Shown here in pieces: positions 38,737-55,673 of a stretch of 64,000 bases of DNA (within the stretch, counting starts at the first letter, position 1; each line of letters opens with the position of its first letter). Below the pieces are notes generated by a model that saw nothing but the letters and a program-made list of their open reading frames with translations, did no database searches and was not told where the DNA came from. The position numbers and the translations under genes were made by a program. Origin of the DNA: Vicinamibacterales bacterium (GTDB lineage: Bacteria; Acidobacteriota; Vicinamibacteria; Vicinamibacterales; UBA2999); the NCBI GenBank assembly GCA_035263125.1, contig DATFRP010000196.1, positions 22,551-86,550 on the forward strand, written 5' to 3'.

Positions 38737-40509
38737 GTGTCATTTCCCAGGTACTCCGTTCTTGCTGCCGCGCTGTGTGTCGCCTGCGCGGCGTGTGGAT
38801 CCACTCCCCCTCAGAGCCCCGCGCCCACACCGAAGGCGAACTCCGCGCTCGAGATCAAGGGAGACTGGTTCACGGAACGCGCCGAGGAGAGCGGGCTCGC
38901 CTTCACGCATGTCAACGGCATGTCGGGCAAGTTCCATTACGCCGAGATCATCGCGCCCGGCGCTGCGCTGTTCGACTACGACAACGACGGAGACCTGGAC
39001 GTCTACCTCGTGCAGGGCTCGGAATTCGGGAAGCCAGGTCCGGGCGGTCGTTTGTTTCGCAACGATCTCCTCGTCAATCCTGACGGCACGCGCACGCTTC
39101 ATTTCACTGACGTCACCGCCGCGAGCAGAATCGTTGCTCGCGGATATGGGATGGGTGCGGCGACCGGTGACATCAACAACGATGGCTGTCTCGATCTGTA
39201 TCTGACCAACCTCGGGGCCAATCAGCTGTTTCGCAACAACTGCGATGGCACGTTCACCGATGTCTCGAGGCAGAGCCGCACTGATAGTGCATCATGGAGC
39301 GTCTCGGCCTCGTACTTCGATTACGACCGTGACGGATGGCTCGATCTGTTCGTCGGCAATTATCTGAACTGGCGCGTCGAATCGAGCCAGCCGTGCTTCA
39401 GCGCGTCGGGGAGACCCGATTACTGTTCACCTAACGTGTACCAGCCGCAGCCGAGCCGCCTGTATCACAACAATCGCGACGGCACGTTCACCGATGTCAG
39501 CAACGCCTCGGGCATCCTGCACGAGTTCGGACCTGCGCTCGGCGTCTCGGCTGCCGACTTCAACGGCGACGGGTGGATAGACTTCTACGTGGCCAACGAT
39601 GGCCAGCCCAATCAGCTGTGGATCAATCAGCACGACGGCACGTTCAGGAACACCGGGCTGCTGTCGGGCACTGCGCTGAGCGCGCACGGGAAAGCCAAAG
39701 CGGGCATGGGGGTCGCCGCCGGCGACATCGACAACGACGGCGACGAAGATCTGTTCGTGACCAACCTGACTGGCGAGGGGAACGACCTGTACATCAACGA
39801 TGGCTCCGGTCTGTTCGAGGAACAGAGCGGGCGCTCCGGCCTGGGCGCCCCCAGCCGCGGGTACACCGGCTTCGGGACAGCATGGTTCGACATCGACAAC
39901 GACGGCTGGCTCGATACGCTCATCGTCAATGGCGCGGTGCAGACCATCGAGGCGCTCAGGCGAGTGAACGACCCCTTTCCGCTGCATCAGCGCAAGCTGC
40001 TGTTTCACAATCTGCGAAACGGTCGATTCGAAGATGTCAGCGCGCGCGGCGGTGCGGCGTTCGCGTTGTCAGAGGTCGGCCGCGGCGCGGCGTTCGGCGA
40101 TATCGACAACGATGGTGATGTCGACGTGCTCGTGGCCAACAACAACGGCAGGCCGCGGCTGCTCGTCAACAACATCGGCACTCGCAATCACTGGATCGGC
40201 CTCCGGCTGGTCGGGCAAGTCCGCCTGAAGGCGGACACTACATCCGATGTAGTGTCCGGCTCTAGCCGGACCCGCGACATGCTCGGAACGCGCGTTGGGG
40301 TCGTCCTCGACAACGGATCAACGCTGTGGCGACGGGCCCACTCGGACGGGAGCTATGCATCGGCCAGCGATCCTCGCGTGCTCGTCGGGCTCGGGCAGTC
40401 GACGAGTGCTCCTCGCGTGCGGGTCGTGTGGCCTGACGGCAAGACCGAAGAATGGACGACGGTCGCCATCGATCGGTACACCACGCTCGCAGAAGGCACC
40501 GGCAAATGA
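38737..40509 (+). CDS. CRTAC1-family lipoprotein: 7-bladed FG-GAP/VCBS beta-propeller + ASPIC/UnbV C-terminal domain (pair 1)
   Basis: Lipobox-like N-terminus MSFPRYSVLAAALCVACAACGS. Seven Ca-binding-type blades (DYDNDGDLDVYLV, GDINNDGCLDLYL, FDYDRDGWLDLFV, ADFNGDGWIDFYV, GDIDNDGDEDLFV, FDIDNDGWLDTLIV, GDIDNDGDVDVLV). UnbV-like end (NHWIGLRLVG...GSYASASDPRVLVGLG). GTG start. Confidence 0.8.
   Translation: MSFPRYSVLAAALCVACAACGSTPPQSPAPTPKANSALEIKGDWFTERAEESGLAFTHVNGMSGKFHYAEIIAPGAALFDYDNDGDLDVYLVQGSEFGKPGPGGRLFRNDLLVNPDGTRTLHFTDVTAASRIVARGYGMGAATGDINNDGCLDLYLTNLGANQLFRNNCDGTFTDVSRQSRTDSASWSVSASYFDYDRDGWLDLFVGNYLNWRVESSQPCFSASGRPDYCSPNVYQPQPSRLYHNNRDGTFTDVSNASGILHEFGPALGVSAADFNGDGWIDFYVANDGQPNQLWINQHDGTFRNTGLLSGTALSAHGKAKAGMGVAAGDIDNDGDEDLFVTNLTGEGNDLYINDGSGLFEEQSGRSGLGAPSRGYTGFGTAWFDIDNDGWLDTLIVNGAVQTIEALRRVNDPFPLHQRKLLFHNLRNGRFEDVSARGGAAFALSEVGRGAAFGDIDNDGDVDVLVANNNGRPRLLVNNIGTRNHWIGLRLVGQVRLKADTTSDVVSGSSRTRDMLGTRVGVVLDNGSTLWRRAHSDGSYASASDPRVLVGLGQSTSAPRVRVVWPDGKTEEWTTVAIDRYTTLAEGTGK
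40219..40271. repeat. Three abutting perfect hairpins inserted in-frame in the CRTAC1 (pair 1) coding sequence
   Basis: gtccgcc-tgaa-ggcggac (40219-40236), acactacat-ccg-atgtagtgt (40235-40255) and gtccggc-tcta-gccggac (40254-40271). They encode VRLKADTTSDVVSGSSRT, a segment absent from the paralog at 47661-49352. Confidence 0.8.
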
Positions 40510-47660: not shown

Positions 47661-49352
47661 CTAAGACGCCTTCGCGGCCTTGCCGCGTTCGAGGATCCAA
47701 TACCGATCGACGGCAAGGCCGCGGAATTCCTCGACGTCCCCCGGTCCCCATTGCACGCGAACCGTCTGCATCGATTGATCGTCGCCGAGCCCGAACATCA
47801 CTCGTGGATCGCTGGCGGTGCAGTAACTGCCGTCGACCTGAACACGACGCACGACGTTACGACCTCCGCGACCCGCAAGCTCGACACGCGACTGCAGCGC
47901 GTCGCGGTGATAGCGGGGATCGATCGCACGGACACCGAGCCAGTGGCCGCGCGCCCTGACCTCGTTCATCAGCACTCTCGCCGGACCACTGTTGTTGAAG
48001 ATGACGATGTCGATGGAGCCGTCGTTGTCGAGGTCGCCGGCCGCAATCCCGCGAGCGACCTGCATCGGTGCGAACGCGGGCCCGGCGGCGGCGCTGACAT
48101 CCACGAACGTCCCTCGCCGATCGTTGTGAAACAGCTGGCTCCGCTGCTTGAGTGGATAAGGGTCGCCCTTCTGCACCTGGGCGCTCAGATGCCTGACGGC
48201 ACCATTCGCGACGATCAGATCGAGCCAGCCATCGCTGTCGTAGTCGATGAAGCGCGTGCCGAAGCCGGTGAAGCCGAGTTTGAAGAGTCCGTGTTCGACC
48301 GTGCGATCTTCGAACAACCCCCGGCCGACGTTGACGTAGAGCGTGTTGGCCTCGTTGTCGAGATTGGTGACGAACAGATCCTCGTCCCCATCGCCGTCGA
48401 TGTCTCCAAGGTCGATACCCATGCTCCCCTGTGCCTGGCCTGCACGATTGAGCGCCACACCGGCCAGCAGCCCTTCGTCCTTGAACACGCCCGTGCCCTG
48501 CTGGTTGATCCAGAGGCGGTTGGGATCGCCGTCGTTGGCCACATAGATGTCGATCCATCCATCGCCGTTGATGTCCGACGCGAGCACGCCAAGCCCTCGT
48601 GCCGGTGACCGCGTGAGGCCCGCACGCGCCGAGACATCCGAGAACGTTCCGTTGCGATCGTTGTGCAGCAGTCGATCGGCGACCGGCGGATACACAACGG
48701 GATTGCAGTAGTCCCGCGCCGAGCCCGCCGAAAAACAGGTGCGCTTCATGTCCGCGCGGAAGTCGACGTAGTGCGCGACGTACAGATCGAGCCAGCCGTC
48801 GCGGTCGTAATCGAAGAACGTCGCGCTCGTACTCCAGCGCTGGTCGCCAGTGCCCGATTTCTCGGTGACATCGGTGAAGGTGCCGTTGCAGTTGTTGTGG
48901 AGCAGCTGATTGCCGCGTAGATGCGTCAGGTACAGATCGACGCACCCATCGTTGTCGAAGTCACCGGTGGCAGCACCCATGCCATAACCGCGCGCGACGA
49001 TGCCACTCGCTTCGGTGACGTCGGTGAAATGAAGCGATCGCGTCCCCGGAGTCACACGAAGATCGTTCCGAAACAAACGCCCCCCGCTCCCTGCCCCCTG
49101 CACGAGGTACACATCGAGATCGCCATCGTTGTCGTAATCGAACAGCGCACCGCCGGCACCGATGACTTCGGGAAGCCGCAACTCACCCGCCGCGCCGTTC
49201 ACGTGGGAGAAGTCGAGACCAGACTCTTTCGTCCTGTCAACGAGGATGGGAGCGTGCTCCTGCGCGGATCCGTCGAACACCGCCAGCGCCGCGAGGCATA
49301 CCACGACGCTCGATGTCAGCCCCGCACGAACGGCCACACACCGGCGCGTCAC
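47661..49352 (-). CDS. CRTAC1-family secreted protein: FG-GAP/VCBS beta-propeller + ASPIC/UnbV domain (pair 3)
   Basis: Same blade series as the other copies (DYDNDGDLDVYLV, GDFDNDGCVDLYL, FDYDRDGWLDLYV, SDINGDGWIDIYV, GDIDGDGDEDLFV, IDYDSDGWLDLIV, GDLDNDGSIDIVI). The UnbV end lacks the palindromic insertion (GHWLGVRAIDPRYHRDALQSRV). Confidence 0.8.
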   Translation of the reverse strand: MTRRCVAVRAGLTSSVVVCLAALAVFDGSAQEHAPILVDRTKESGLDFSHVNGAAGELRLPEVIGAGGALFDYDNDGDLDVYLVQGAGSGGRLFRNDLRVTPGTRSLHFTDVTEASGIVARGYGMGAATGDFDNDGCVDLYLTHLRGNQLLHNNCNGTFTDVTEKSGTGDQRWSTSATFFDYDRDGWLDLYVAHYVDFRADMKRTCFSAGSARDYCNPVVYPPVADRLLHNDRNGTFSDVSARAGLTRSPARGLGVLASDINGDGWIDIYVANDGDPNRLWINQQGTGVFKDEGLLAGVALNRAGQAQGSMGIDLGDIDGDGDEDLFVTNLDNEANTLYVNVGRGLFEDRTVEHGLFKLGFTGFGTRFIDYDSDGWLDLIVANGAVRHLSAQVQKGDPYPLKQRSQLFHNDRRGTFVDVSAAAGPAFAPMQVARGIAAGDLDNDGSIDIVIFNNSGPARVLMNEVRARGHWLGVRAIDPRYHRDALQSRVELAGRGGRNVVRRVQVDGSYCTASDPRVMFGLGDDQSMQTVRVQWGPGDVEEFRGLAVDRYWILERGKAAKAS

Positions 49353-49368
49353 GAGTGCATCTTACCGC

Positions 49369-50988
49369 TCACGCGCCAGGGCGAGGATGGTGCACCGGAT
49401 CGTCGTTGGTCCAGGGAACGCGGCAGGGTCGACCGGCTTCGTACTGCTTGAGTACCTCGGTGAGCCGCGAGACGATTGCTCCGCCGCCACTCTGCCGCGC
49501 CATTGCGATGGCGTCCCGCTGCCAGCGGATCGCTGCCTGAAAGCGTCCGAGCTCCGCCTGCGTCATCGCCATCGTCTCGGCCAGGGCGAGTGTCCGCTGG
49601 CTCTCGAGGAGCCGCGTCATGATCATCTCGGCGCGGGCGCCGTCGCGCACGCGATCGTCGGGCGCGGCCGCCAGCAGGCGCGCCAGCGCGTGCGCGAATC
49701 CCGGCTGATCGGGAAACGCTTTCATGCTGTCCTGCAGACGGTCGCGTGCTTCCTGATAGCGCGCGAGCCGGACGAGCCCGATCGCGTATCCGAAGCTCGC
49801 CTGCGAGACGGCGGGATTGATGCGGATGATCTCGGCGTAATGCGGAAGCGACTCCTGGACGCGGCCATTGCGACGAAGCGCGTTGGCGAGCGTGAAACGG
49901 GCTTCGAGATACGCGGGATCGCTCGCCACGGCCGTCGAGAACGCGGCGATCGCCTCGTCATCGCGGCCGCGCGATTCCATGATGACCCCGATCCCGAAAT
50001 GCGCGCGGGCGAGACCCGGAGACAACCGCACCGCCTCGCGATACTGTTCCAGCGCGCGGTCGGCGTTCCCCTGCATGTACAACGCGGTGCCCAGATTCAG
50101 CCGGGTGAACGCATTGCGCGGCGACAACTCGACGGCCTTCGACAGATTGTCGGCGGCATCGGCCCATTGACGTGCATCGAGCGCCCTGGTCCCGCGGGTT
50201 TCGTAGGCCGCGGCGTTCTGCAGCAGTCCCGCGAGATCGGCCATCAACGGATCCGCCTGCGGCGGATCGACGTCACCGCGCAGCTTCAAATGCGCGTCCG
50301 CTGCTCGCGCGTTGCCAATACCGCGGTAGGCGAGCGCGAGCGGATAGTGCACGCGCGTTGCAGCCGGCGCCACGCGCAACGCGTTCTCGAGAAAGGTCAC
50401 GGCTTGTGAGTACTGCTGCCTGGCCAACGCCACGCGGCCCAATCCAAACGACACTGCCCCCGACTCCGGCGCCAACGATTTCGCCGTCGTCAGCAGTCGC
50501 TCGGCCTCGTCGGTGCGGTTCGCCGCCAGATGCAACTCGGACAGCCACACCAGCGTCGGCACATCGGTCGGCTGCAGCATGAGCACGCGCTCGAATGCGG
50601 TGACCGCACGCGCGTCGTCGTGCTCGAGGCGAAAAACGTGTCCCAGGTAGTACGGCCACTTCATCTCGGAAGGAGCGAGCGTCTGCGCGTTGGTGAGACA
50701 GGCTTCAGCGGCATCATAGAATTCGGCCGCCATGAAGAGCTTCCCCATCTCGCCGTACGCATCCGCAAGTTCGCTCGACGCGACGCCGGGCTTGCCGATG
50801 GCGGCGGTCATCGACTCGTAACGCGCGCGCAGTTGCGTCTGGACCGATTCCGCCGCTGTCGACATGTCGGGCAGAGACACCGTCTTCAGCGACGGCGTCG
50901 CTGGTGCGGCCGGCGCTGATTCGCGGGCCGTATTGCACGCGGTCACGCCAAGAATGCTGGCGGTCGCGAGGGTAACGAGGTATCTCAC
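49369..50988 (-). CDS. TPR-repeat lipoprotein (pair 2)
   Basis: GTG start overlapping the upstream CRTAC1 stop (GTGA). Lipobox MRYLVTLATASILGVTAC|N. Conserved blocks ELADAYGEMGKLFMAAEFYDAAE and KWPYYLGHVF are shared with pair 1. Confidence 0.8.
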   Translation of the reverse strand: MRYLVTLATASILGVTACNTARESAPAAPATPSLKTVSLPDMSTAAESVQTQLRARYESMTAAIGKPGVASSELADAYGEMGKLFMAAEFYDAAEACLTNAQTLAPSEMKWPYYLGHVFRLEHDDARAVTAFERVLMLQPTDVPTLVWLSELHLAANRTDEAERLLTTAKSLAPESGAVSFGLGRVALARQQYSQAVTFLENALRVAPAATRVHYPLALAYRGIGNARAADAHLKLRGDVDPPQADPLMADLAGLLQNAAAYETRGTRALDARQWADAADNLSKAVELSPRNAFTRLNLGTALYMQGNADRALEQYREAVRLSPGLARAHFGIGVIMESRGRDDEAIAAFSTAVASDPAYLEARFTLANALRRNGRVQESLPHYAEIIRINPAVSQASFGYAIGLVRLARYQEARDRLQDSMKAFPDQPGFAHALARLLAAAPDDRVRDGARAEMIMTRLLESQRTLALAETMAMTQAELGRFQAAIRWQRDAIAMARQSGGGAIVSRLTEVLKQYEAGRPCRVPWTNDDPVHHPRPGA

Positions 50989-52769
50989 TTCCCTTCACCC
51001 TGTTTCAGAGTGATGTAGCGATCGACAGGCAGATCCTCCCACATCTCCATTCGCCCGTCGGGCCATCGCAGGCGCACCGCCACGGGGTCGGCCGACTCGC
51101 CCAGCCCGACGAGCACGCGCGGATCGTTGGCGGATGCGTAGCTGCCATCAGCGCGCGAGCGACGCCACAGCGAGCCTCCGCTCTTTCGAACGATCTCCAC
51201 ACGCGCGCCGAGCATGTCTCGCCCGACCTGGGCCGCCTTAAGGCGGCCCCCACGATCGTCGTAGGGGCCGCCCTTAGGCGGCCCAACGAGTCGAAGCCCC
51301 AACCAATGACGCCCTCTCGTGGCCTGATTGATCAGCAGCCGGGCAGGTCCGTTGTTGTTGGCGATCACCACGTCCACGTCGCCATCGTTGTCGATGTCGC
51401 CGAATGCCGCGCCGCGACCGATCTCCGACAACGCAAACGCCGCTCCTGCTTTCCCCGTCACATCCTCGAAACGCGTGCTTCCTCCATTGCGCAGCAACAG
51501 CTTCTTCTGGTGCAGGGGAAACGGATCGCGCGCCTGCCGCAGCGACTCGATGATCTGCACCGTGCCGTTGACGGCCAGCAGATCGAGACGGCCATCGGAA
51601 TCGAAGTCGAACAAGCCGGCACCGAATCCGGTCAGCGCCAGGCTCGCGGGCCCGACCATCGAGGGCGCGCTCGCATCGACGAACAGGCCGTGTCCGTCGT
51701 TCACATAGAGGTTGCTGCCCTCGCCCGTCAGCTCGGTCATCACCAGATCTTCATCGCCGTCATTATCGATGTCGCCCGCGTCGACACCCATGCTGCCTTC
51801 CGCCTTGCCGCTGACCGGAAGCGCGACCCCTGAAGCCAGCGCCACATTCTCGAACGTGCGGTCGTGGCGATTCAGCCAGAGCTGATTCTCCTTGCCATCG
51901 TTCGCGACGTAGATATCCATCCAGCCGTCGCCGTTGAAGTCCGCGGTCGAGACTCCGAGCGCCGGACCAAACTCGGTGGCCACATGAGACGAAGCGGTGA
52001 TGTCGGCAAACGTGCCGTTTCGTCGATTGAGATAGAGCCGATCGGGCAGCGGCGGAAAGCTGCTCGGCGTGCAGTAATCGGGCGCGCCGGTCGGGCTGAA
52101 GCAGGAGCCGTTGCCCGCGAGCGTGTAGCGCAGGTAGTTGCCGACGTAGAGATCCAGCCATCCGTCGCGATCGATGTCCACGAAGGCCGCGGACACGCTC
52201 CACGACTCCAACGCCGTCCCGGTTTCCTTCGCGACGTCCGTGAACGTGCCGTCGCCGTTGTTGCGAAGCATCTGGTTCGGCGCGTTGAACTTCGTCAGGT
52301 AGAGGTCCACCCATCCGTCGTTGTTGAAGTCACCGGCGGCGACACCCATGCCGTAGCCGCGCGCCTCGATCTTGCTCTCGCGGGTCACGTCAGTGAAGTG
52401 AATGGTGCGCGTGCCATCAGGGTTGATCCGCAGATCGTTCCGGAACAACCGATCGTTCTGTCCGGGTCCTCGGCTCCCGAACTGACCGCTTTGTACGAGG
52501 TAGACGTCCAGATCGCCATCGTTGTCGTAATCGAACAATGCGACACCCGGCCCCAGAATCTCCGGCATGTACAAATGGCCCGACATGCCGTTGATGTGCG
52601 TGAAATCGAGACCTGTCTGCGCGGCGCGGTCGACGAACCAGTCGGCTTCACCATCCGAACGCCTGTCGGTCGTCTCCGGACGGGTCGTCGCGGGCTGACT
52701 CCCCGAGCAGCCGGCGAGCAGGAGGAGAAGAACGAGCGGGGTCGGATCGCGTCTGTTGTGCGGCCGCAT
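50985..52769 (-). CDS. CRTAC1-family lipoprotein: FG-GAP/VCBS beta-propeller + ASPIC/UnbV domain (pair 2)
   Basis: Lipobox MRPHNRRDPTPLVLLLLLAGC|SGS (ATG 52769; the ORF-track start at 53066 overlaps the upstream gene). Same seven-blade series. The UnbV end carries an insertion (PPKGGPYDDRGGRLKAAQVG). Confidence 0.8.
   Translation of the reverse strand: MRPHNRRDPTPLVLLLLLAGCSGSQPATTRPETTDRRSDGEADWFVDRAAQTGLDFTHINGMSGHLYMPEILGPGVALFDYDNDGDLDVYLVQSGQFGSRGPGQNDRLFRNDLRINPDGTRTIHFTDVTRESKIEARGYGMGVAAGDFNNDGWVDLYLTKFNAPNQMLRNNGDGTFTDVAKETGTALESWSVSAAFVDIDRDGWLDLYVGNYLRYTLAGNGSCFSPTGAPDYCTPSSFPPLPDRLYLNRRNGTFADITASSHVATEFGPALGVSTADFNGDGWMDIYVANDGKENQLWLNRHDRTFENVALASGVALPVSGKAEGSMGVDAGDIDNDGDEDLVMTELTGEGSNLYVNDGHGLFVDASAPSMVGPASLALTGFGAGLFDFDSDGRLDLLAVNGTVQIIESLRQARDPFPLHQKKLLLRNGGSTRFEDVTGKAGAAFALSEIGRGAAFGDIDNDGDVDVVIANNNGPARLLINQATRGRHWLGLRLVGPPKGGPYDDRGGRLKAAQVGRDMLGARVEIVRKSGGSLWRRSRADGSYASANDPRVLVGLGESADPVAVRLRWPDGRMEMWEDLPVDRYITLKQGEGK
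51230..51284. repeat. Two copies of the gggccgcc-(c)tta(a)-ggcggccc hairpin inserted in-frame in the CRTAC1 (pair 2) coding sequence
   Basis: gggccgcc-ttaa-ggcggccc at 51230-51249 and gggccgcc-ctta-ggcggccc at 51265-51284, separated by a segment containing the palindrome acgatcgt. The same hairpin occurs intergenically at 55588-55607. Confidence 0.8.
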
Positions 52770-52816
52770 CAATCGAGATCGTACCCGCAGGCACGCATCA
52801 AGATCCGGCCCATCGA

Positions 52817-53227
52817 TCAGTGCAGCGTTTCGCGCGAGGGAGCGTCTTTGAGCACGCCGGTCACCGCGCGGTGCGCGAAGACAGCGTCGGGGACTTCCTG
52901 CAGGGCGGTGTAGTACCGCTGTTCGTACGGCGTGCCCTGTTCGTCGGGGGCGACCAGCCGTCGCGCCTGAGCCACGATCGCAGCGACATCCACGACCGTA
53001 TCCGGCTCCTCCGTATCGAGCGTCTGATCGATCCGCACGATGAGTTCGGAGATCGGACGCAGCCATGCAAACTGCGGATCCGAAACGATGACTCGCAAGA
53101 GCTCGCCTTTGGTCACACGGCCGTGCTTGCGTTCGTAGCCCTCACGCTCCCAGTCGAGGAGCGTCTTGTGCAGCGGCAGGAGCGCGCGCCGCAGCTCGCC
53201 GAGCAGTCGGCGATCGGAGTCTTTCAT
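52817..53227 (-). CDS. Hypothetical cytoplasmic protein (136 aa), first gene of the minus-strand CRTAC1/TPR string
   Basis: ORF with start at MKDSDRR (ATG 53227). It has no signal peptide and is predicted helical (LLGELRRALLPLHKTLLDWEREGYERKHG...). I recognise no family. Confidence 0.55.
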   Translation of the reverse strand: MKDSDRRLLGELRRALLPLHKTLLDWEREGYERKHGRVTKGELLRVIVSDPQFAWLRPISELIVRIDQTLDTEEPDTVVDVAAIVAQARRLVAPDEQGTPYEQRYYTALQEVPDAVFAHRAVTGVLKDAPSRETLH

Positions 53228-53826: not shown

Positions 53827-54137
53827 GCCCGATGGCTTCATTGCCGGCCCACCCCGCCCGCCGGCACGGCCGAGACCGGGGCCACCCCTGCCTGCAGGGG
53901 GAGCGCCTGACCTTCCTGCGCGCGCATCGATGACTCGACCGCTGCGAGCGACGACGCCAGCACACCGGCAAACGCGGCACATGAAAGGGACTTCGTGAAG
54001 GCTCGATTCATACCGGTTTTCCTCACGGCAGCGTTATGAGGCTGGCCCGAGCATTGTAAGGGGGTCGGGAGTCATTCAGGCCTATAATTTCAGGGGTTGC
54101 ATTGAGTCTCGAACACCCTGCTGGAGAGGCATTGGCC

Positions 54138-55553
54138 ATGAGAACGTGCCTGATCGCGGTTGCGGGTTCATTGCTGTGTGCGTCGACGCTGGCCGCAGCG
54201 GATGCGCCGACCTTCTACAAAGACGTCCTGCCGATCCTGCAGGCCAACTGTCAGACGTGCCATCGCCCCGGAGAGGTCGCGCCGATGTCGCTCGTCACCT
54301 ACGAGCAGGCGAGACCATGGGCACGCGCGATCAAAACGGCAACTGCTGCGAGGCAGATGCCTCCGTGGTTCGCCGATCCCGGTTACGGCCATTTTGCGAA
54401 TCAGCGTCGACTGAGCGACGCCGAGATCGCGACGCTGGCGTCGTGGGCAGACGGCGGTGCGCCAGCAGGCGATCCCGGGACGGCTCCACCACCGCTGACA
54501 TTCGAGAGCGGCTGGAACATCAAGCCCGACGTGATCGTGGAGATGCCGAAGGCGTTCGAGCTGCCGGCACGCGGCACGATCAACTACAAGTACATCCTCG
54601 TGAAGACCAACTTCAAAGAGGACATGTGGGTGACCGCCGCTGAAATGCGGCCGGGCGATCCCGCGGTGCTGCACCACGGCAAGGTGTGGGTCCGTCCTCC
54701 TGGATCGACCTGGATGGAGAAGGCGATTCCGGGCGAAGCGTACGAGACCGAAACGCAGAGGGCGATCCTCGGCAAGAACGCGATCGAGGAAGGCAACGAC
54801 ATCCTCGGCAAGTTCAACCCCGGTCTCGGCGCGCAGCGCTTCGATCAGGAAGGCGCCGCGAAGTTCATTCCCAAAGGATCCGATCTCGTGTTCGAGCTGC
54901 ACTACACGACCTCGGGCAAGCCGACGAGCGACGTGTCGAAGGTCGGTTTCGTACTCGCGAAGAACCCGCCGCAGACGCGCTACTACTTCCACGCCGGGCC
55001 GACCGCGCTCAATCTGGCGATTCCGGCCAACGACGGCAAGGCCGAAGTCGTGAGCGAGATCACGTTCGGCGAGAACGCAAAGCTCGTCTACGCACAGCCG
55101 CACATGCATCTGCGCGGCAAGGATTTCGAGCTCCGCGTCGTGACGCCGAATGGAGAGAGCACGACGGTGCTGAAGGGCAACTGGAACTTCGAATGGCAGA
55201 TGGGCTATCAGTACGCCGAGCCGATCTCGCTGCCGAAGGGATCCAAGCTTCGTCTGATCAGCCACTTCGACAACTCGAAGGCCAACCGCTTCAATCCCGA
55301 TCCGGAGACGAAGGTCGTGTGGGGTCCACAGAACTGGGATGAGATGAGCAACTGCTTCATCGGCGTCCTGTTCGATCGCAGCACGTCACCGGACAAGGTG
55401 TTCCTGCGATCGGGGCCGAGCCTGCTGCCGCGCGGCGAGAACGGGCCGACGCTCAGCTCACTCGACAGCATTCGTCCGGACGCGGTCGAGCGTGCCGGCA
55501 ACGCCGGGCCGGGCGACTTCGAGGAGAAGCCGTCGCACAAAGGGGGCAACTGA
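54138..55553 (+). CDS. Secreted cytochrome c (CXXCH) domain fused to a PHM/DBH-like type II copper monooxygenase fold
   Basis: Signal peptide MRTCLIAVAGSLLCASTLAAADA. Heme c motif CQTCH with the downstream methionine context. The copper-ligand pattern is in the expected order: LHHG ... ELHY ... PHMHLRG ... WDEMSNCF (HH, H, HxH, M). Start ATG 54138 is preceded by GGAGAGG. Confidence 0.65.
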   Translation: MRTCLIAVAGSLLCASTLAAADAPTFYKDVLPILQANCQTCHRPGEVAPMSLVTYEQARPWARAIKTATAARQMPPWFADPGYGHFANQRRLSDAEIATLASWADGGAPAGDPGTAPPPLTFESGWNIKPDVIVEMPKAFELPARGTINYKYILVKTNFKEDMWVTAAEMRPGDPAVLHHGKVWVRPPGSTWMEKAIPGEAYETETQRAILGKNAIEEGNDILGKFNPGLGAQRFDQEGAAKFIPKGSDLVFELHYTTSGKPTSDVSKVGFVLAKNPPQTRYYFHAGPTALNLAIPANDGKAEVVSEITFGENAKLVYAQPHMHLRGKDFELRVVTPNGESTTVLKGNWNFEWQMGYQYAEPISLPKGSKLRLISHFDNSKANRFNPDPETKVVWGPQNWDEMSNCFIGVLFDRSTSPDKVFLRSGPSLLPRGENGPTLSSLDSIRPDAVERAGNAGPGDFEEKPSHKGGN

Positions 55554-55587
55554 TCACGCTCTCTTCGTGGGAGCCGCCTCTTTGTGG

Positions 55588-55607
55588 GGGCCGCCTTTAG
55601 GCGGCCC
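55588..55607. repeat. Intergenic copy of the gggccgcc-ttta-ggcggccc hairpin
   Basis: A perfect 8-bp stem, 35 nt after the stop at 55553. Same unit as the two intragenic copies at 51230-51284. Confidence 0.75.
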
Positions 55608-55673
55608 GTTCTTGGGTGTTCGTAAGGGCCGTCCGCCTGCGCTAAACGCCTCGGCGAGTCGGTCCATCGCTTT

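Follow-up and report, generated by a model that had tools for sequence, protein, structure and literature searches.

An in-frame doublet of GTAG-type REPs in a CRTAC1-like lipoprotein gene of a Vicinamibacterales bacterium, at a loop apparently occupied more than once

How do perfect, GC-rich palindromes come to lie in frame within one loop of a protein-coding gene, and why do two paralogs carry unlike palindromes at the same codon position? The question is raised by a 64,000-nt stretch of DNA from a Vicinamibacterales bacterium (GenBank assembly GCA_035263125.1, contig DATFRP010000196.1, positions 22,551 to 86,550 of the forward strand), called the window here. Its source genome, denoted G000, is a 383-contig draft of 7.54 Mb with 64% G+C, whose nearest named relatives are Vicinamibacterales and Luteitalea metagenome-assembled genomes; the sister genome is denoted G012. 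Within the window, a CRTAC1-like gene on the minus strand (50985..52769, the "pair-2" gene) contains a 55-bp insert at 51230-51284, and a paralog on the plus strand (38737..40509, the "pair-1" gene) contains one of 53 bp at the same place. In the pair-2 gene, two units of a GTAG-type repetitive extragenic palindrome (REP) form an inverted doublet with their heads turned inward, hairpin-CCAC(G) facing (C)GTAG-hairpin. The host gene, the parts of the doublet and an intergenic copy of the same family are as follows.

50985..52769, minus strand: CRTAC1-like lipoprotein gene (host), with FG-GAP/VCBS beta-propeller repeats and a C-terminal UnbV_ASPIC domain
51230..51254, minus strand: REP unit A, hairpin GGGCCGCC-TTAA-GGCGGCCC (51230-51249) plus head
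51255..51259, no strand: spacer of 5 nt, ATCGT, between the inward-facing heads
51260..51284, plus strand: REP unit B, head CGTAG (51260-51264) plus hairpin GGGCCGCC-CTTA-GGCGGCCC (51265-51284)
55584..55607, plus strand: intergenic REP of the same family, head GTGG plus GGGCCGCC-TTTA-GGCGGCCC (hairpin 55588-55607)

Both hairpins of the insert are perfect GGGCCGCC-N4-GGCGGCCC palindromes, with stems of 8 bp and loops of 4 nt. On the minus (coding) strand, unit A reads CGTGG-hairpin, in which GTGG is a variant of the GTAG head, and encodes R-G-G-R-L-K-A-A-Q; unit B, in the coding-strand reading, yields G-P-P-K-G-G-P-Y. Between the hairpins lies CCACG-ATCGT-CGTAG, within which the 8-nt palindrome ACGATCGT is composed of the spacer and head bases. 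A hairpin pattern search of the window gives three matches against 0.00 expected (100 shuffles), the intergenic one starting 35 nt past the stop of the open reading frame (ORF) 54102..55553. Together with its flanks, the pair-2 insert folds into a single long hairpin (-64.2 kcal/mol, z = -8.8). Sequence, pattern search and translation agree with everything that the first-pass annotation had stated of fact about the locus, namely two hairpins at 51230-51284, a third at 55588-55607 and the protein context.

The same unit is spread over the whole genome. A genome-wide census, as the first-pass annotation had called for, returned 95 exact GGGCCGCC-N3-5-GGCGGCCC hairpins, mostly intergenic, with TGAA/TTCA loops in 62 and TAAA/TTTA loops in 15, and nearly all of them have CTACG(T) after the hairpin or, on the other strand, (A)CGTAG before it. 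The unit bears the signature of GTAG-tagged REPs; it is a short GC-rich palindrome with GTAG at one end, high-copy, dispersed and mainly intergenic. The first-pass annotation had taken the unit for a dispersed repeat rather than a protein-driven sequence, and the census bears this out, so that the objection of a hairpin absent elsewhere in the genome falls away. When the sister stem families are included (GTCCGGC 123, GTCCGCC 39, GGGCCGGC 15, AGGCCGCC 11, GGGCCACC 8), 294 perfect hairpins in 259 clusters are obtained, with a GT[AG]G head no more than 1 nt from the stem in 237 of the 294 (~80%); only about 16 of the 259 clusters are situated in coding frames. The genome holds 35 doublets with spacers of 1 to 48 nt (10 with heads in, 8 with heads out, 7 in tandem and 10 in which only one head could be recognised), among which mixed GTCCGCC+GTCCGGC pairs, similar to that of the pair-1 gene, recur. 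REP copies number 92 in G000, 93 in G012, 53 in G017 and 50 in G019, at most 13 in other members of the genus, and 0-2 in other families of the order, where the loops are unrelated; the REP family is lineage-restricted.

The host gene is intact and under purifying selection, judging from its domains and from comparison with its ortholog. Both the pair-1 and pair-2 proteins consist of FG-GAP_3 repeats followed by a C-terminal UnbV_ASPIC domain, and in the host protein the matches to PF13517 (FG-GAP_3, 6.2e-50) and PF07593 (UnbV_ASPIC, 1.1e-13) give the domain composition of CRTAC1/ASPIC-UnbV proteins. The syntenic G012 ortholog, with 92% nucleotide identity, shows a synonymous divergence (dS) of 0.19 and a ratio of nonsynonymous to synonymous divergence (dN/dS) of 0.23, the swapped insert being counted; for the pair-1 paralog and its G012 ortholog, dN/dS is 0.058. 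The ORF 50985..53066 (minus) reads HWLGLRLVG-PPKGGPYDDRGGRLKAAQVG-RDMLGARV, in which the doublet adds 17 codons net and leaves the frame open, in a beta-hairpin loop where the UnbV/ASPIC domain begins. In an AlphaFold2 model built from 28 homologs (mean predicted local distance difference test score, pLDDT, 89.3; predicted template modelling score, pTM, 0.89), the insert corresponds to mature residues 497-516, and pLDDT falls below 50 at 501-513, between strands 488-496 and 523-527. In the model, the added residues form a disordered loop at the surface, and the strands on both sides of it are well predicted. The top match of the model in the PDB is murine CRTAC1 (9etn_A, E = 4.5e-30, TM 0.67/0.72), which indicates a CRTAC1-like fold. 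At the other end of the gene, the start likely lies at 52769 (MRPHNRR..LLLLLAGC), with a lipoprotein signal and the lipobox LAGC. The open frame extends to 53066; the 99 codons upstream of the likely start (52770-53066, minus) are Arg/Ala-rich and look non-coding, and automatic ORF calls would over-extend the host gene through them.

The corresponding loop is filled differently in the pair-1 paralog, and a third paralog in the window serves as an empty-site control.

40219..40271, plus strand: pair-1 insert, in gene 38737..40509 (plus strand), GTCCGCC-TGAA-GGCGGAC-ACTAC / GTAGT-GTCCGGC-TCTA-GCCGGAC
47661..49352, minus strand: third CRTAC1-like paralog, short native loop RAIDP-RYH-RDALQSRV

The pair-1 insert faces heads inward like that of pair-2, but it combines two sister families (GTCCGCC and GTCCGGC) and adds 16 codons, the protein reading RLVG-QVRLKADTTSDVVSGSSRT-RDMLG; its G012 ortholog keeps only the remnant GGGCCGCCTGAAGG, read VGPPEGRD. 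The tripeptide RLK sits at the start of the insert in pair-1 and near its end in pair-2, as the first-pass annotation had remarked, and is simply one open frame of the hairpin core CGCCT(G/T)AAGGCG. In other G000 paralogs, the native loop is a turn of 3-4 residues (for example RVVG-RNR-RD, RAIDP-RYH-RD and G-TKSN-RDG). Outside the genus, the turn has 3-4 residues in 78 of 82 homologs, and the excess never exceeds 6 residues.

In a gene tree computed without the loop columns, the pair-1 gene is sister to a pair-2 clade (support 100), which divides into subclades A and B. The loops of subclade A are short (VGG in G011 and G003, ANG in G005, GNG in G014). In subclade B (support 97), the loop is altered in every member. 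G000 carries GGGCCGCC twice with heads in, and G012 carries GTCCGGC twice with heads out, in an insert of identical length and a protein 95% identical outside the loop. G017 possesses a related doublet that has the GTGG head in common with G000, and its second hairpin has an expanded loop of 55 nt, 89% identical to a composite REP type found in G000 too. G004 retains a single hairpin, GPPAGGP, and G023 has lost the loop together with seven flanking residues. Further inserts occupy the same loop position in other clades: GTAG-GGCGCGTCC and GCCGGTCC hairpins in G023b; three hairpins, CCGGGCTC / CCGCGCCC / GCGGACCC, in G012b (L030) and in the C100 paralog of G000 itself (C100:40998-41648); and a common 'RPST.GRP..VEG' insert in G003b and G017b. 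The insert of the C100 paralog, 46 residues long and rich in P, K and S, is unequal in length between G000 and G012.

Insert-free lineages with the VGG loop are placed between and around the pair-1 and pair-2 genes. VGG is most simply ancestral, because identical VGG loops are found in separate clades, and if so, the loop has been colonised at least five times. On this reading the loop is a recurrent hotspot, one codon position occupied in near relatives by varying REP doublets, remnants or deletions. The first-pass annotation had preferred insertion at a permissive hotspot, either independent or rearranged, to simple inheritance. The unlike stem families, the intervening VGG lineages, the differing inserts in at least five clades and the short loops outside the genus uphold the hotspot; the denial of inheritance has to be softened, since occupancy of both loops predates the G012 split. 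A stronger proposal is that the loop DNA, ancestrally CTN-GTN-GGN-GTN-GGN-GGN and similar to a REP head followed by the first stem bases (GTAGGG), is genuinely preferred as a REP target, beyond mere tolerance, and forms a transposon-driven hypervariable loop in secreted, TonB-receptor-linked CRTAC1-like proteins. This we consider unlikely.

Inheritance enters through a comparison of 1.19 Mb of G012 with G000. Flanks could be aligned at 24 REP sites of G000, and G012 has a REP, or what remains of one, at every one of them. About eight of these sites are conserved, in about five the copy number differs (singlet versus doublet), three have a 34-37-nt element inserted in the REP tetraloop, and at two or three the REP family is swapped, one of them (C91:18104; contig and position in G000, as below) intragenic. 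REP sites are thus inherited and their content is remodelled in place, and such genome-wide remodelling fits the loop swap of the pair-2 gene between G000 and G012. Occupancy of both loops is older than the G000/G012 split, and it is the REP content that changed afterwards. From this pattern we infer that further REP events may be directed at existing REP heads and loops.

Several observations were made alongside this comparison. The element nested in REP tetraloops is ~37 nt (T-GCCGCCTTCGCGC-N4-GCGCTACGGCGGC-CAGGGAA) or ~55 nt long. It occurs in G000 at C84:2846-2897, C103:2940-3010, C31:1658-1725, C46:2599-2649 and about 25 further sites, as well as in the loop of the G017 ortholog (L004), and its presence differs between G000 and G012 at the orthologous REPs C103:1513, C184:17188 and C2:48372; it looks like either a REP-loop-targeting secondary element or an expanded-loop REP subtype. 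The spacer that holds the intergenic REP (55554-55660) corresponds to C129:129053-129179 of G012. A GGGCCGCC REP exists in both, at opposite ends of the spacer, and the G012 spacer contains an extra REP of another family (GTAG-AGCGGGGGC-TTCA-GCCC.GC). Many synteny breaks between the two genomes are short tandem repeat arrays of CACGGAGAT / GGAGAAACGGAG-type units around a unique core (C169:11102-11410, C302:11368-11720, C322:17789-18091 and others), very different in length between G000 and G012 and unrelated to REPs.

Taken jointly, the observations are probably best explained by an in-frame GTAG-REP doublet in a CRTAC1-like beta-hairpin loop that was mobilised as hairpins, the site then being remodelled. 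Under this explanation, REP units would be moved as single-stranded hairpins by a Y1 transposase of the REP-associated tyrosine transposase (RAYT) type, or by replication-linked copying. Intragenic insertions would survive only if their length is a multiple of three, their frame is free of stops and the protein tolerates an extra loop. An occupied REP site may then attract further REP events, its heads and loops being the targets, with family swaps, collapse of doublets to singlets and nesting of elements in the tetraloop as the outcomes. Such re-targeting would explain the unlike hairpin pairs at one codon position in the pair-2 gene, its G012 ortholog and the pair-1 paralog.

A number of results weigh against hairpin mobilisation followed by remodelling. 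The full 55-bp doublet, like the 53-bp doublet of pair-1, has no second copy in the genome, and because only single 27-33-nt units match elsewhere, the repeated unit is the single REP and not the doublet, as it would be in a REPIN, the paired-REP element of other bacteria. No cognate transposase for the GTAG REPs was found in the genome search. The genome has one Y1/RAYT-like gene (C313:3874-4290; L001:1474-2202, plus strand), located between purN and purM, which scores 53 bits with PF01797 and 77.7-79.1 bits with NF047646, for which the cut-off is 80; inverted AATGGGGTCGGGAGTCATTCTC copies, and not GTAG REPs, lie on either side of the gene. A search with NF047646 at E <= 1 gave only this gene, and a second transposase could be missed in a draft of 383 contigs. 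Of the features of a REPIN-RAYT system, the inverted pair with a long hairpin is present; a doublet replicating as a unit and a cognate RAYT between copies of the same REPs were not found. Between G000 and G012, just one clean gain or loss was found (C169:22749), and therefore no target motif for first insertions could be derived; the shared motif that the first-pass annotation had suggested looking for was pursued in this comparison, where every one of the 24 sites was occupied in both genomes. Finally, REP stems diverge by 4.2% and their flanks by 9.0%, a difference that is not significant (p = 0.09) and is ascertainment-biased. As to the repeats around the transposase gene, the core of AATGGGGTCGGGAGTCATTCTC, GGGGTCGGGAGTCATT, has 151 genome copies and represents a second, unrelated palindromic repeat family; the layout of that gene corresponds to the "TIR-flanked tyrosine transposase" of Di Nocera et al. 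(PMC3733652).

Could one ancient insertion that predates the separation of the paralogs, and was inherited and then diverged, account for both loops with no hotspot at all? Such a history would fit the exact coincidence of the loop, the heads-inward order of both doublets and their similar net length (+17 and +16 codons), and since REP content can be swapped in place, unlike families alone do not prove separate insertions. However, loops are short in the pair-2 subclade A and in other clades (G007 and the C26 paralog of G000 itself), identical VGG recurs in several lineages, where repeated precise deletion is unlikely, and the hairpins are perfect although the paralogs are only ~59% identical. 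In addition, only a few genomes of the genus have the REP family, and the empty-loop pair-2 orthologs branch after the duplication; pair-1 yielded only its remnant-bearing ortholog. We regard one ancient insertion as distinctly improbable. Co-option of the hairpin pair, whether as an mRNA stabiliser, as a site of pausing between propeller and C-terminal domain, as a processing site or as a selected variable surface loop, would make the recurrence a matter of selection and not of targeting. RNA-level roles have been reported for REPs (PMC3733652), the insert folds with very high stability (-64 kcal/mol), the hairpins are perfect despite their apparent age, the related insert of the G017 ortholog has the same GTGG head, and the loop variants TAAG and TTAA differ from the consensus loops by synonymous changes in the frame that is read. 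These points are offset by relatives that tolerate an empty loop, a single hairpin, a deleted loop or unrelated hairpin families, by the occurrence of the same REP peptides in unrelated proteins, which argues against a specific function, by stem conservation that is not significant, and by the absence of any Rfam or terminator match; co-option is in our judgement rather unlikely.

Two further explanations can be dealt with more briefly. In a genome of 64% G+C, with the intergenic copy just past a stop codon, chance GC-rich hairpins or look-alike intrinsic terminators come to mind, but three hairpins in the window against none expected and 95 across the genome with a conserved head refute chance, and a terminator scan and an Rfam search of the region gave no T-tract terminators, no T-tract after the hairpins and no Rfam matches, which leaves this idea with virtually no weight. 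REP insertions usually disrupt genes, and the host might be a decaying pseudogene with the insert marking its inactivation, a possibility that the first-pass annotation had named as fatal to its own reading. The frame is nevertheless open over 594 codons with all domains intact and a confidently predicted fold, dN/dS stays at 0.23 even with the swapped insert, and the ortholog protein retains its 95% identity outside the loop, all of which makes decay very improbable. The preferred explanation remains an in-frame REP doublet, hairpin-mobilised and later remodelled.

In-frame REPs are not peculiar to the CRTAC1-like genes. A codon-usage test identified 20 clusters that lie in an open frame and have coding-like sequence to either side. 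About 14 other G000 genes have in-frame REPs and were confirmed by Pfam domains, which span the REP or lie on both sides of it. The carriers comprise PrmA, MoeA_C, three Ser/Thr kinases (two Pkinase domains and one kinase linker), AMP-binding (acyl-CoA synthetase), Ald_Xan_dh_C (a xanthine-dehydrogenase-type Mo subunit, in which the in-frame REP is kept in G012), the r2-r4 linker of an extracytoplasmic function (ECF) sigma factor, three PSD/DUF1592 cytochromes, the C-terminus of NuoL, an ankyrin protein and VWA_CoxE. The sites in G000 are given below.

C240:1544, C272:26340, C335:231, C6:48653, C70:21400, C50:11903, C22:7414: in-frame REP sites
C323:8867, C173:54413, C57:3194, C91:18104, C203:73801, C113:7910, C275:6405: remaining in-frame REP sites

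The recurring peptides GPP[EK]GGPY, VGAAFRRP, VGAGFSRP, VRLKPDTT, VSGFSRT, SPA[KE]AGHY and GRLKAA are the stop-free frames of the hairpins. Separately, hairpins in MacB/FtsX genes (C165:5394 and C183:366), with atypical loops and no head, were rejected as chance, and C37:24410 was rejected as an intragenic REP, its ORF being spurious and antisense.

Di Nocera et al. (2013, PMC3733652) described GTAG REPs within genes of several species, where a dimer contributes about 20-30 residues to the protein. The present elements resemble the GTAG-tagged REPs of that study in being 20-bp GC-rich palindromes with GTAG at one end, high-copy and mostly intergenic and 3' of genes, often paired in opposite orientation and, in a minority, in frame inside genes. 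They differ from them in the host, a Vicinamibacterales acidobacterium, in the stem families, in that no REP-flanked transposase gene (REPtron) was found in this genome, and in the unlike REP pairs at one codon position in paralogs and a 95%-identical ortholog. The REPIN-RAYT system (Bertels and Rainey 2011, PMC3116915) likewise features two inverted REPs forming a long hairpin, vertical inheritance of sites and a single-copy RAYT-like gene, but here the doublet is not repeated as a unit, the spacers vary from 1 to 48 nt, and the RAYT-like gene is flanked by another repeat family.

Rickettsia palindromic elements (RPEs), as outlined in PMC3733652 from Ogata et al. (2000), are in-frame palindromic repeats in genes. 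They share with the present inserts the palindromic structure, the in-frame position, a gene that stays functional and an added surface peptide, a resemblance that is functional only. RPEs are about 100-150 bp long. The units here measure 25 nt and belong to other sequence families, and RPEs are found in the reduced genomes of intracellular bacteria. To our knowledge, no RPE case has been described in which different families colonised one loop repeatedly. The mixed GTCCGCC+GTCCGGC pairs resemble the Y/Z REP pairs of the bacterial interspersed mosaic elements (BIMEs) of E. coli (PMC2817692). In those composite elements, two REP variants alternate in orientation. E. coli BIMEs are extragenic and bind integration host factor (IHF) and gyrase. 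Intragenic REPs as such are already known; what is new here is the phylum, the hotspot series at one codon position, the in-place family swap between near-identical orthologs and the small element nested in REP loops.

These results extend the in-frame REP 'decoration' of proteins to Acidobacteriota. They provide a well-resolved natural series at one codon position, with empty, doublet, swapped doublet, singlet, remnant and deleted states, which is rare material on how REPs are inserted, replaced and absorbed into proteins. Furthermore, a family of ~300 copies with no obvious cognate RAYT bears on how REPs are mobilised, and annotators should be aware that Gly/Pro/Arg-rich loop peptides such as GPP[EK]GGPY, VGAAFRRP, VRLKPDTT and GRLKAA are here derived from repeats. 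If the loop were indeed a preferred REP target, the gain, swapping and decay of REPs would constitute a natural generator of length and sequence diversity in this exposed loop.

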